Assembly (NCBI RefSeq): GCF_006345805.1 | Contig: NC_043001.1 | Span: 31,000,001-31,064,000 of the forward strand | Length of the DNA stretch: 64,000 nt | Direction: 5' to 3' | DNA from: Octopus sinensis | Taxonomy: Eukaryota | Shown: in pieces, positions 11,473 to 58,375 of the stretch | Layout of the letters: each line of letters starts with the position of its first letter | Numbering within the stretch: the first letter of the stretch is position 1 | The notes under the pieces: model-generated | What the model was told of the DNA's origin: nothing | The model's input: the letters and a program-made list of their open reading frames with translations, nothing else | Database searches by the model: none | Program-made: the position numbers and the translations under genes

Positions 11473-12262
11473 CTCTAGGCACAAGGCCTGAAACTTTTGG
11501 GGAGGGGGGCGGTCGATTAGATCGACCCCTGTACGCAGCTGGTATTAATTTATCGACCCCGAAAGGATGAAAGGCAAAGTCGACCTCGGCGGAATTTGAA
11601 CCCAGAACGTAAAGACAGACGAAATACCTATTTCTTTATTACCCACAAGGGGCTAAACACAGAGGGAACAAACAAGGACAGACATAGGTATTAAGTCGAT
11701 TACATCGACCCCAGTTCGTAACTGGTACTTAATTTATCGACCCCGAAAGGATGAAAGGCAAAGTCGACCTCGGCGGAATTTGAACCCAGAACGTAAAGAC
11801 AGACGAAATACCGCTAAGCATTTCGCTCGGGGTTCTAACGTTTCTTATTTCTTTATTGCCCACAATGGGCTAAACATAGAGGGGACAAACAAGGCCAGAC
11901 AAACATATTAAGTCGATTATATCAACCCCAGTGCGTAACTGGTACTTAATTTATCGACCCCGAAAGGATGAAAGGCAAAGTCGACCTCGGTGGAATTTGA
12001 ACCCAGAACGTTATGACAGACGAAATACCTATTTCTTTACAACCCACAAGGGGCTAAACACAGAGGGGACAAACAAGCACAGACAAACGGATTAAGTCTA
12101 TTACATCGACACCCAGTACTTAACTGGTACTTATTTAATCGACCCCGAAACGATGAAAGGTAGAGTCGATCTCGGCGGAATTTGAACTCAGCTCGTAAGG
12201 GCAGACGAAATAACGCTAAGCATTTCGCCCGGCGTGCTAACGTTTCTGCTAGCTCGCCGCCT
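11473..12262 (-). mobile_element. SINE family A head-to-tail concatemer (about 4 central blocks)
   Basis: ATCGACCCCGAAAGGATGAAAGGCAAAGTCGACCTCGGCGGAATTTGAAC recurs at about 11552, 11736, 11953 and 12138. Confidence 0.85.
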
Positions 12263-12942: not shown

Positions 12943-13377
12943 GGGATCTTTTCGGTTTGAACGGCAGTTTTTTAAAAATAATTTCCACGTAACTAAACAC
13001 TTTTAAACTTCGTATATTGGTAGAAAGTGTTTATAAAACATCTTTTTCTCTTGGCTTTATTGAGAAAATTCTATAGTTTGTAAGATATTTGTTGTTGTTT
13101 TTTCATCAATTTCTGCAATTTCAACCAATCAATGACTTATATTGAGGTGAAAACATTCTGTGCCGTATGAATATGTCCTTTGTTTAAGAAACAGATTGGG
13201 TTTATTTACATTTCTGAAGAAAAAAGATACCCTTCCCCCCACTCTAACCCTAACCCTAACTAACCCTAACCCTAAAACAGATTGAAATGCAATAGATCGA
13301 TACTAGGGTCATAATTATGGGTGACAATTTCATATGACACCGCTAGAAAAAACTGCCGTTCAAACCGAAAAGATCCC
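12943..13377. mobile_element. MITE with perfect 30-bp TIRs and internal telomere-like (CCCTAA)n
   Basis: GGGATCTTTTCGGTTTGAACGGCAGTTTTT at 12943 and its exact reverse complement ending at 13377; CTAACCCTAACCCTAAC..CCCTAA at 13244-13275. Confidence 0.9.
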
Positions 13378-20135: not shown

Positions 20136-20464
20136 TATAAGAGAGTGGTCACTATATGGCTCACTCTAGCACCAGTTAATCCAAAAGGTTTCAACCACTA
20201 AAAATAATGTTTCCCATGAAAGTCAGTACGATTGTTAGCTCACTTGGTGTTGAATGGATATACTATTAAATTAGTATCTAATTCTCTCACCCTTATTAAT
20301 TATTATAATTATGCTGCATTTATTTCTAAATGCTGTATTTGTTTTCCGTGAGAGTTTGGCGCGCTGTTAGTTGGGGCATTTGAATTATAACGTCGGATGT
20401 AATCAATTGAACACGCGTATTATCGTTATGGTAAAATCTGGCGTGTGATTGAGTGGATTTCATC

Positions 20465-20560
20465 CAGATAGTTTTGGCCGATGAGCTACAAGTGGATTTT
20501 TTTGTAAGTAAAATTACATTTAATTCATTAATAGCGAAACAATTGTCCCAAAATAATCTG
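20465..20560 (+). ncRNA. Type I hammerhead ribozyme, copy 1 (predicted cleavage after C20547)
   Basis: Stem I CAGATAGTTTTGG/CCAAAATAATCTG; core CCGATGA 20478-20484; stem II GCTA/TAGC extended by GTGGATT/AATTCAT and TGTAA/TTACA; GAAA 20536-20539; palindromic stem III ACAATTGT; GUC site. Confidence 0.8.
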
Positions 20561-20993
20561 TATTTTTGTTTTTTTTTATTGCCCTGTCCGTGTGAGCTAA
20601 CAATCGTACTGACTTTCATGGGAAACATGTATTTTTAGTGGTTGAAACCTTTTGGATAACTGGTGCTAGAGTGAGCCATATAGTGACCACTCTCTTTATT
20701 ATTTTGTAAAAATATTATAATATATTATAAAATATTATAATAATCCAGGTTCTCGGAGCACTAGGCCACTTGGTGTTGAATGGATATACTATTAAATTAG
20801 TATCTAATTCTCTCACCCTATTAATTAATTATAATTATGCTGCATTTATTTCTAAATGCTGTATTTGTTTCCGTGAGAGTTTGGCGCGCTGTTAGTTGGG
20901 GCATTTGAATTATAACGTCGGATGTAATCAATTGAACCACACGCGTATTTATCGTTATGGTAAAATCTGGCGTGTGATTGAGTGGATTTCATC

Positions 20994-21089
20994 CAGATAG
21001 TTTTGGCCGATGAGCTACAAGTGGATTTTTTTGTAAGTAAAATTACATTTAATTCATTAATAGCGAAACAATTGTCCCAAAATAATCTG
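20994..21089 (+). ncRNA. Type I hammerhead ribozyme, copy 2 (predicted cleavage after C21076)
   Basis: Same sequence as copy 1; core 21007-21013, GAAA 21065-21068. Confidence 0.8.
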
Positions 21090-21369
21090 TATTTTTGTTA
21101 TTTTTTTATTTGCCCTGTCCGTGTGAGCTAACAATCGTACTGACTTTCATGGGAAACATGTATTTAGTGGTTGAAACCTTTTGGATTAACTGGTGCTAGA
21201 GTGAGCCATATAGTGACCACTCTCTTATATTTATTTTGTAAAAATATTATAATATATTATAAAATATTATAATAATCCAGGTTTCTCGGAGCACTAGGCC
21301 ACTTGGTGTTGAATGGGATACTATTAAATTAGTATCTAATTCTCTCACCCTTATTAATTAATTATATAT

Positions 21370-42648: not shown

Positions 42649-42931
42649 AGTCTCTGTCGTATGGTTGCATGTGTGCACCTTTAGGTATGCAAATGCGACG
42701 AGCAAAGTACATTGTACTTCAGTGTGATGTACGTGGGTTTGTGTCTGTATGCGTACATGGTGTTGTGTTATGTGTTTACGCACACACACACACATACACA
42801 CACACACTCATGTACGCATACATGCACAAATATATGTGTATGTATTTATCTGTGTTTGTGTAGTTTATATATATATATATATGTAAATGTATACATATAT
42901 ACAATATATGTATACATATATATATACATAC

Positions 42932-42971
<40 letters not shown>

Positions 42972-42975
<4 letters not shown>

Positions 42976-43812
42976 GTGAAATAGAAGAGAATAATCTTGT
43001 AGTAGATTAATCAACAGTTTTACCGATACCGTATTAGCAAAAATCACAGCAGTAAACAGCACGGTTGGAGGTACAACCATCTGGCGTTTGCAAACCGTGC
43101 GTTGGTGCGGATAATTGAAATTAAAACATATTGGTGAATTGAAGAAATGGAGCTGAACGCAGATTGAACAGAATCGTTTTATTTCATTCTACACGTGTTT
43201 CGAAAGGCACAAATTACCAAAATCCGATTGAATAATGGGACCATATTGTGTCTTTCTCTTCAGGAAGAAAAAGGAAATCCGTGGAAAAACAAAAACAGAA
43301 ACAGAGGCGGAGCAAAAACCAAATCGAACTGTGCTCTTAAGAGCCCATGGCGAAACTGTTTTATCAGTTATGTTTGAGAAACCGGTGGCTGAAGAATCAA
43401 CGGGTCAGGCATCGGTCAATCAAGTGGGTGAGGTGTATATATGTTCTTTGTGACCGAGAATACGTTCTGACTATTTAAAGAATATTGGATGTTTTATAAG
43501 TGGCGAGAAAAATCTACTTAGAACGTGTGTGTGTGTGTATACTGTTCTAATAATGGTGTGTTGGCGTAGGGGTAGAAAACTTTTTGTGTACGTGTATGCG
43601 TTTGATCGTTCGGCTGTCAGTGGCTACTGCCGTGATAACGTTGGGGGTGCAGAAAGAAAAAGTTAAAAAAATTATATATATATAAAGACACAATATGGTC
43701 CCATTATTCAATCGGATTTTGGTAATTGTGCCTTTCGAAACACGTGTAGAATGAATAAACGATTTCTGTTCAATCTGCGTCAGCTCCATTTCTTCAATTC
43801 ACCAATAATGTT
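42972..43812 (-). mobile_element. Non-coding hammerhead-bearing Penelope-like unit with 5' inverted segment
   Basis: Bounded by (TA)n; 43684-43812 is the reverse complement of 43125-43255; hammerhead at 43182-43270. Confidence 0.65.
43182..43270 (-). ncRNA. Type I hammerhead ribozyme with fully canonical core (predicted cleavage between 43190 and 43189)
   Basis: Minus strand TTTCTTC-CTGAAGA-GAAAGACACAA...TTGTGCCTTTC-GAAACACGTGT-A-GAATGAAA: stem I 7 bp with a bulge, stem II 10 of 11 bp, palindromic stem III ACACGTGT, GUA site. Confidence 0.8.
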
Positions 43813-44295
43813 ATATATATATATATTATATTTAAGTAAGTATGTTTGCATGCGTGTGTGTACTTTAGTATGTTTGAGATAATGGATGCTATTAGTCTAC
43901 GTATTGTTACGTGCACAAAAGCTATGCGTATATTTTGTGTATTTATAGATGCTTTTTTTTCTGTCTGTATTTTCTTCGTCTTGCTTATGAGAATGCAAGA
44001 ATATATGTATGTATAGAATACTTCTATACCGATGTTCCAACTTTCTCTTTTCTCTCTCTCTCTCTCTGTCTCTTTTCTCTCCTCTCCCTGTGTGTTTGTG
44101 CATGTGAGTATGTGTGAGAGTGTATGTATTCATGTGTGTATGTGTGTGTTTGTGTGTGTATGTGTGTATGTGTCTGTGTGTGTGTAACTATGTCTCCCAC
44201 TCTATTAGAGTGTGTAAATATGCATACACACACAAAGATATACACACACATATATGCATGTATATATATATGCATATGGACATGAATACACACAC

Positions 44296-57403: not shown

Positions 57404-57434
<31 letters not shown>

Positions 57435-58018
57435 TTCTTTATTGCCCACAAGGGGCTAAACATAGAAGGGACAAACAAGGACTGACAAACGGATGAAGTC
57501 GATTACATCGACCCCAGTGCGTAACTGGTACTTTATTTCTCGACCCCGAAAGGATGAAAGGCAAAGTCGACCTCGGCGGAATTTGAACTCAGAATGTAAT
57601 GGCAGACGAAATACCTATTTCTTTACTACCCATAAGGGGCTACACACAGAGGGGACAAACAAGGACAGACAAACGGATTAAGTCGATTATATCGACCCCA
57701 GTGCCTAACTGGTACTTATTTAATCGACCCCGATAGGATGAAAGGCAAGGTCGACCTCGGCGGAATTTGAACTCAGAACGTAGCGACAGACGAAATACCG
57801 CTAAGAATTACGCCCGGCGCGCTAACGTTTCTGCCAGCTCACCATATTTATATACGACGAGCTTCTTTCAGTTTCCGTCTACCAAATCCACTCACAAGGC
57901 TTTGGACGGTCCGAATCTATAGCAGAAGACACTTGGCCAAAGTGCAACGCAGTGGGACTGAACTCGGAACCATGTGGTTGGTAAGCAAGCTATTTACCAC
58001 ACAGCCACTCCTGCGCCT
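57236..58018 (-). mobile_element. SINE family B with a SINE family A dimer (57433-57843) nested in its internal microsatellite
   Basis: B tail 57236-57375, (TACA)n, A dimer, B head 57856-58018. Confidence 0.85.
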
Positions 58019-58375
58019 CCCAAAACTTTTATTCAAAAGTCTTTGGTCGTGGATACGGTAGACAGGTAGAAATCCCTTGCCCAAGGTACCACGCCCGGCG
58101 CGCTAACGTTTCTGCCAGCTCACCATATTTATATACGACGAGCTTCTTTCAGTTTCCGTCTACCAAATCCACTCACAAGGCTTTGGACGGTCCGAGTCTA
58201 TAGCAGAAGACACTTGGCCAAAGTGCAACGCAGTGGGACTGAACTCGGAACCATGTGGTTGGTAAGCAAGCTATTTACCACACAGCCACTCCTGCGCCTC
58301 CCAAAACTTTTATTCAAAAGTCTTTGGTCGTGGATACGGTAGACAGGTAGAAATCCCTTGCCCAAGGTACCACGC
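57810..58375. repeat. 281-bp tandem duplication
   Basis: 57810-58090 is near-identical to 58091-58371, with ACGC microhomology at the junctions. Confidence 0.9.

Follow-up and report, generated by a model that had tools for sequence, protein, structure and literature searches.

A predicted type I hammerhead ribozyme in the pseudo-LTR of an abundant Hydra-type Penelope-like retroelement of Octopus sinensis

Within the C-terminal EN+ Penelope-like elements (PLEs), the Hydra clade, which includes Hydra-1_Obim from octopus, is defined in its published description by an RW motif, by DKT and by a CxxC..E..N..CxH arrangement without CCHH (Craig et al. 2021, PMC8557442). According to that description its members combine RW and DKT with a C-terminal GIY-YIG-type domain containing CxxC and CxH and lacking CCHH, target (TA)n, carry a canonical type I hammerhead near the 3′ end, and occur as partial tandems and inverted truncated copies, all of which recur in the element reported here; Hydra-1_Obim itself measures 2,507 bp, inserts into (TA)n and bears a different, short-armed hammerhead (PMC8557442). 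Minimal and variant hammerheads of PLEs have been reported as type I motifs in pseudo-LTRs (pLTRs), with a palindromic helix III, a predicted dimeric form, a helix II longer than usual, and paired copies on opposite strands at distances of 100-700 bp (Cervera and de la Pena 2014, PMC4209133; Lunse et al., as reviewed in PMC6765202), and the octopus element has these properties in common with them. For the anole Poseidon element PAc it has been reported that two RT starts downstream of the ribozyme define a tail, that mainly uncut RNA serves as template and that targets are AT-rich, features with counterparts here, and that its hammerhead is protein-assisted and dispensable (Frangieh et al. 2024, PMC11167929). 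Metazoan non-LTR retrozymes likewise share with our element a type I hammerhead, a short helix III and a high-copy repeat organization; those described are 150-450-bp non-coding tandems, whereas here the ribozyme sits in the terminal part of an element that encodes protein (Cervera and de la Pena 2020, PMC7229834).

The locus lies in a 64,000-nucleotide stretch of the Octopus sinensis genome (contig NC_043001.1, positions 31,000,001 to 31,064,000; hereafter the window, within which all positions are numbered). On its minus strand a type I hammerhead motif occupies 43184..43269, with helix I arms at 43269-43264 and 43189-43184. A preliminary description made from the sequence alone had held every core residue to be present, and this is indeed the case: the core box CUGAAGA (C3-A9; 43257..43263) and GAA (G12-A14; 43199..43201) can be read directly on the minus strand, together with A15.1-U16.1, completing the type I core features CUGAnGA, GAA, A15.1-U16.1 and NUH. 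The stem II arms proposed there coincide with an extended helix II of 55 nt (43202..43256), comprising approximately 11-12 bp with one mismatch, an asymmetric internal loop and a nested apical hairpin, and the proposed stem III palindrome is the helix III 8-mer ACACGUGU (43191..43198), predicted to form an 8-bp intermolecular duplex. By hammerhead numbering, the predicted scissile bond follows GUA and lies between 43190 (A17) and 43189. With both strands scanned, this was the sole type I descriptor match in the window, and block-wise dinucleotide shuffles (n=100) yielded a mean of 0.13 matches, or 0.01 when helix II had to be at least 5 bp. The helix II hairpin folds better than its shuffles (z -2.3, 3/200), while the whole 106 nt folds no better than shuffles (z -0.11), and helix I of this copy is weak, consisting of 3 bp, a C-U mismatch, then U-G and U-A. 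Rfam Hammerhead_1 (RF00163) matches 43184-43269 on the minus strand at 14.8 bits, below the gathering score of 34, with the long helix II scored as an insertion; a scan of the whole window gave no hammerhead among the 150 matches listed of 171, nearly all of which are microsatellite hairpins scored as miRNA families. The motif in the window is thus real, and its self-cleavage is a prediction. Directly before the core, a long pyrimidine tract (minus strand, 43264-43325) whose first AG falls inside the core box resembles a splice acceptor, for which the splice acceptor of D. virilis Penelope is said to be a precedent; contigs from the 4 of 21 runs that covered the stretch (three of them only presumed to be RNA, and with ends, strand and level not readable from contigs) contained no joint at the ribozyme.

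The motif is carried by a 5′-truncated copy of the element's 3′ end (pseudo-LTR / 3′ UTR; 42972..43684, minus strand) that has no ORF sequence and matches both pLTRs of a full element elsewhere in the genome (L032). The copy reaches the family's "long" 3′ end, about 215-218 nt beyond the scissile bond, and hence contains the ~150-nt "tail" (42972..43122, minus strand) that separates the short (+67) from the long (+218) 3′ end. It abuts an inverted, likewise 5′-truncated copy on the plus strand (43684..43812), which starts one base into helix II, lacks CUGAAGA and finishes at the short 3′ end, and the pair is bounded by the (TA)n target microsatellite at its long end (42866..42972) and its short end (43812..43830). 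A truncated copy with an inverted truncated copy in (TA)n is the arrangement described for PLEs (PMC8557442). The preliminary description was silent on both the weak helix I and the inverted partial copy with its missing CUGAAGA half, and had named the motif the best candidate for catalysis in the window; this stands only in the sense that it is the one canonical core there, since the copy has no ORF, the predicted hammerhead fold of the monomer is 5.9 kcal/mol less stable than the minimum-energy fold, and read-through transcription would, by prediction, leave 69 of the 78 ribozyme bases paired to the inverted copy. Taken alone, the window copy is ordinary, and it is likely a passive fossil.

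A search of the animal's own genome with 42975-43680 gave 2,553 first-look candidates, of which 40 were scored, 39 of them being other copies at 92-94% identity. The 74-nt motif has 1,359 exact copies genome-wide (control 0), and the 33 nt following the scissile bond have 2,578. Paralogues extend upstream into the endonuclease end of an ORF and some extend downstream into the ORF start; in three loci (L031-L033) direct, same-strand pLTR copies lie 3,625-3,637 bp apart, and a further locus (L107) holds an uninterrupted 895-aa ORF between two same-strand hammerheads. A corresponding RT search of the genome returned 14,026 candidates, 114 of which were scored, with open frames of up to 923 aa, and the persistence of such frames indicates that the element family is young. 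The hammerhead descriptor matched in the pLTR at 36 of 40 ORF-anchored loci, the scissile bond being situated 266 nt before the ATG (at +267), with three upstream ATGs in the leader. That the motif represents a second hammerhead-bearing family in the window, as had been proposed, was therefore borne out by paralogues that conserve the core and show covariation; what the family is had been missed, and on its sequence features we identify it as the pseudo-LTR of an autonomous Hydra-clade Penelope-like retroelement.

This assignment draws on both the protein and the anatomy of the element. As in EN+ PLEs generally, a single 895-aa ORF combines an RT (YRDD) with a C-terminal GIY-YIG-type endonuclease (VYQC..YIG, R, E, N), and pLTR partial tandems, inverted 5′-truncated copies and a tail at one end are all found. 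The RT and endonuclease were called from motifs and from homology to 114 proteins; a Pfam-A scan of the ORF gave no RT or GIY-YIG match and a PDB sequence search with it gave nothing, and some of the homologues bear precomputed PF26215 or PF28514. The protein motifs (RW, DKT, KDHK, YRDD and a C-terminal CxxC..E..N..CxH) agree, in a comparison by eye, with the Hydra supplementary alignment of the clade description (PMC8557442). The RWK-type motif appears as IRWL, differing in the third residue, and DKT in place of DKG as SDKT, while the cysteine and histidine pairs around the conserved E and N read by eye as CNLC..E..N..CPH, with no CCHH. Most of the 114 homologues are ~700 aa long, 99 having DKT or DKS and one DKG. 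Compared with these 700-aa homologues, the ORF at L107:912-3599 contains two low-complexity insertions (~50 and ~90 aa) and one remaining linker cysteine. The CxCX5C linker before the endonuclease is absent from L107 and from all 10 lineage loci printed (13 queried), and present in the sister families L182-L184 and L194 and in 92 of the 114 homologues; because of this absence, we file the window lineage as derived Hydra-type rather than as a typical member. Insertion into (TA)n was seen at all 50 non-ORF 3′ ends, and at 84 of 93 matches in a wider, not deduplicated count. The linkerless lineage and the sister families both end in (TA)n; with the cysteine linker lost, (TA)n targeting has persisted. 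The sister Hydra families L182 (G000:C1:7051200-7057800; 4.8-kb period), L183, L184 and L194 have long-arm hammerheads, an intact cysteine linker, and 3′ ends at ~+37 and ~+154.

Set beside the Hydra clade as published, the octopus element differs in size (a 3.6-kb unit with 895 aa against under 3 kb), in the lost CxCX5C linker, and in a tail of ~150 nt against 30-40 bp; its helix II domain measures 55 nt, the 26 Hydra entries of File S2 having ~10-24 nt, and its helix III is a loopless 8-nt palindrome where those entries have loops of 1-3 nt (PMC8557442). Its ribozyme sequence also differs from that reported for Hydra-1_Obim, of which a near match is a separate occurrence in this genome (one match). 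For the minimal and variant PLE hammerheads, helix II has been given as 6-8 bp, whereas here 11-12 bp are extended by a nested hairpin and G10.1 directly follows A9 (PMC4209133, PMC6765202). Length of helix II alone has precedent, because two spike-moss PLE-X rows of File S2 have long loops (PMC8557442). In PAc the RT starts are reported 111-118 nt into the ORF with the ribozyme overlapping the ATG, while in the octopus element the two ends precede the ATG by ~200 and ~50 nt and the scissile site precedes it by 266 nt (PMC11167929).

Conservation of the fold was examined in 40 ORF-anchored loci spanning 70-99% RT identity. In 18 of these, similarity to L107 in the 3′ UTR, microsatellites aside, is confined to one match that begins at the ribozyme (helix I); 14 closer loci align further upstream, 2 align otherwise and 6 have no match. 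An alignment was built from 25 of 43 distinct motif variants, after variants with an indel or point change seen in a single copy, one deletion and one unrelated match had been set aside; invariance of the core within it is circular, because the selecting pattern required the core. Among these 25 subfamily variants, 90.1% of cells are paired and 37 cells have changed on both sides, affecting 9 of 28 pairs and all three helices (2/6 pairs in helix I, 6/12 in helix II and 1/4 in helix III), helix I being weak in the window's own subfamily. The covariation score of 0.211 exceeded the shuffled 0.137 (0/500), slid controls reaching at most 0.075, although the two measures based on counts of pairs or types were no better than shuffles (74/500 and 177/500) and related rows inflate the remaining ones; RNAalifold recovered 10 pairs only, all in helix II and none in helix I or helix III. 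At the centre of helix III the variants read UA (12), UG (9) or CG (4), every one self-complementary, and position 7 and N17 vary as they do in active hammerheads. The predicted energy of the helix III self-duplex is -10.3 kcal/mol as against +2.4 kcal/mol for the hairpin. As the two central bases are unable to pair within one molecule, their kept complementarity points to an intermolecular helix, and the compensatory changes in helix II together with those at the palindrome centre support a dimer. As an unbiased check, 79 of 84 young-family copies pulled by their flanks have an intact core, a family too young to show selection. The earlier view that the ribozyme would need a partner in trans is thus upheld as regards the dimer; a separate molecule is not necessarily required, given that full elements hold two same-strand copies 3.6 kb apart.

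Two 3′ ends were found throughout the subfamilies, at ~+50-70 and ~+200-220. In 54 deduplicated copies, a sample biased to long ends by the first query, 19 ends were short (43-70 nt past the site), 31 were long (~+218; script values of 220-226 include the TA overlap) and 4 ran into the ORF, while no copy ended at the scissile site (0/54). A second sample of 98 copies, 30 taken in genome order and the others from 40 chosen regions, had 52 short and 43 long ends. Inverted pairs showed a marked regularity, with the two ends, ~150 nt apart, distributed one per arm in 37 of 40; two pairs had two short ends, one had a short end and an ORF end, and none had two long ends. In many inverted pairs, moreover, both arms break off at one and the same position. 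The RNA that was copied is mostly uncut, given that the two starts are situated 3′ of the scissile bond, and the two 3′ ends match the two internal RT start sites reported for the anole element (PMC11167929).

We therefore consider it highly probable that the hammerhead belongs to the pseudo-LTR of a young and abundant Hydra-clade Penelope-like retrotransposon, represented in the window by a truncated insertion that lacks the ORF and is joined in (TA)n by a partial copy in inverse orientation, and that RNA cleavage, as predicted, would be confined to the dimer and probably assisted by the element's protein. The full element would be transcribed from the upstream pLTR into an RNA with two ribozymes, one located 266 nt ahead of the ATG and the other in the 3′ UTR. 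The element's RT-endonuclease would nick (TA)n, and reverse transcription would begin 67 or ~218 nt past the scissile bond, one start per target strand, which is proposed to be why inverted pairs have one short and one long end. Since copying through the ribozyme needs uncut RNA, cleavage would have to be held back, and a loopless palindromic helix III, being stable only between two copies, would provide such a restraint. When cleavage does occur, it may shorten element RNA at its 5′ end or release units from tandem or read-through transcripts, in a minority of transcripts; that it would be dimer-gated and possibly protein-assisted is suggested by the element data and by what has been published on PLEs (PMC4209133, PMC6765202). 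A role of cleavage in translation start has been reported for viral type I hammerheads (PMC13725137), and a similar role is possible for the 266-nt leader.

If cleaved RNA is at times copied, insertions would be expected to break at the site on their 5′ side, and approximately 1% of insertions may derive from such RNA. Classifying all matches of four patterns, at the site and in three control windows, gave 29 breaks in 48 matches at the site, with 26 distinct flanks, and 5/11 at -4, 9/33 at +10 and 11/41 at +25. The excess (26 against 5, 9 and 11) has p 7e-4 after adjusting for pattern sensitivity and concerns ~1% of copies. Inspected by eye, three of the 26 flanks resemble small indels more than breaks; several are foldbacks, and some partner arms extend beyond the site. 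In a sample chosen partly by hand, 5′ truncations and foldbacks cluster more densely at two places 5′ of the scissile bond, -11 to -21 and -161 to -173. Near-full-length, ORF-bearing copies show no 5′ pile-up at +1. Cleavage and RT stalling fit the excess alike, because the site coincides with the base of helix III, where RT meets it; the excess is small and suggestive, and RT stalling could also explain it.

It can also be argued that the fold has been kept mainly as a structural signal, for protein binding, template positioning or RT pausing, cleavage being rare or incidental. That none of the 54 copies ends at the site on the 3′ side, that 5′ breaks cluster at the base of helix II as well as of helix III, and that the 55-nt helix II exceeds catalytic need would all be in keeping with such a role, as would the report that catalytic mutants of the anole PLE had no effect on insertion in vitro and that RNA-seq showed no ends at its site (PMC11167929). 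Against this, the full catalytic pattern is retained in 18,074 long-arm matches (99 in the control) across families whose proteins are only ~30-55% identical, position 7 and N17 vary as in active hammerheads, and the palindrome stays self-complementary, and we regard a mainly structural function as unlikely. A bolder version of the preferred reading, which we put forward only tentatively, is that Hydra-type elements which radiated in octopus, and their non-coding passengers, share a distinct hammerhead subtype with a long arm and gating by dimer formation (~18,000 copies, below the Rfam threshold), that the 5′ excess at the site represents cDNAs run off self-cleaved RNA and would be the first genomic footprint of Penelope-like hammerhead cleavage, and that the one-short-one-long rule reflects two priming events per insertion, achieved in the absence of the cysteine linker that has been proposed to direct elements to (TA)n.

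Two further readings concern what kind of unit the ribozyme serves. A non-autonomous non-LTR retrozyme, that is a short tandem repeat processed to circular RNA, would likewise have a type I core, a short palindromic helix III and thousands of copies; the window copy has no ORF, and another repeat in the window, the 535-bp tandem near 20 kb, has the same ribozyme layout. Paralogues nevertheless run into the endonuclease end of the ORF upstream and into the ORF start downstream, copies recur at a 3.6-kb period that encloses an 895-aa ORF, and no short tandem of this unit, and hence no short non-coding monomer, was found in 30 loci, which makes a retrozyme very improbable. Least credible to us is co-option of the window copy by the host as a locus-specific ribozyme, for which its intact core might speak: the motif is letter for letter one of 1,359 identical copies, so that intactness reflects youth, and the inverted copy would pair with the ribozyme in read-through RNA. 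The reading as part of a Hydra-clade pLTR is the one that we retain.

The 20-kb unit (20140-21362) comprises slightly more than two head-to-tail copies of a 535-bp repeat and lies, together with an inverted truncated copy, in (TA)n; as described so far the non-LTR retrozymes are the better fit for it (PMC7229834). It had been called unrelated in sequence to the present motif while alike in architecture, and both statements hold: against related elements the best blastn E is 0.027, for an AT-rich 27-mer, and both combine a long, nested helix II with a palindromic helix III of 8 nt. The genome search gave 873 candidates for this unit, without sequence similarity to the Hydra-type element. Its hammerhead reads CCGAUGA in the window, and the canonical CUGAYGA was found in 9 of 52 copies counted in overlapping loci, so that U4C is a derived, spreading variant; its arrays mostly end 288 nt past the site and a few near 158, and the unit may be mobilised by a Hydra protein. 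Among other repeats in the window, two tandem pairs of one dispersed short repeat (11629-12029 and 57427-57799, with periods of 217 and 184 bp) are presumably a SINE, the second pair being followed by a 281-bp near-perfect duplication (57810-58375), and a short CTAACC run (13244-13275) resembles an interstitial telomere remnant.

Genome-wide, a pattern allowing 40-58 nt inside helix II gave 18,074 matches against 99 in the control, and one allowing 10-39 nt gave 2,467 against 177. A self-complementary 8-mer was present in 29 of the first 30 long-arm loci, and perfect in 23, though the pattern leaves the centre free. The long-arm matches fall into several unrelated sequence families; in 16 regions around other hammerhead families, a Hydra ORF was clear in 4, weak in 1 and absent in 11. 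One tandem family (L165 and L166; G000:C1, ~2.17 Mb) has a 404-bp period, a long-arm hammerhead and the palindrome ACUGCAGU, and further short-arm tandem families have periods of ~353 and ~550 bp. The literature searched on PLE and cephalopod hammerheads, a search that covered neither subscription papers, Repbase and Dfam nor most supplements, contained no description of the long-arm form. The main text of an octopus repeat annotation (PMC13282606) uses neither "ribozyme" nor "Hydra", and its library may list the family under "Penelope"; other supplements, Repbase or Dfam may also contain it already. A hammerhead in a Hydra-type PLE is known and expected there, and what is new lies in the details, namely the long nested helix II, the long tail, the lost linker and the suggestive footprint at the site.

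Genomes of this kind contain more hammerheads than standard Rfam scans report. For the hammerhead of Penelope-like elements, published work has described activity as low, the ribozyme as dispensable in vitro and the site as devoid of RNA ends. With its intact ORFs, thousands of young insertions and graded subfamilies, the octopus family makes questions about the hammerhead testable, and could address whether cleavage takes place on transposition templates, whether helix III forms as a dimer, the natural CG, UG and UA centres amounting to a ready-made set of compensatory changes, and whether (TA)n targeting, which persists here after loss of the cysteine linker, depends on that linker.
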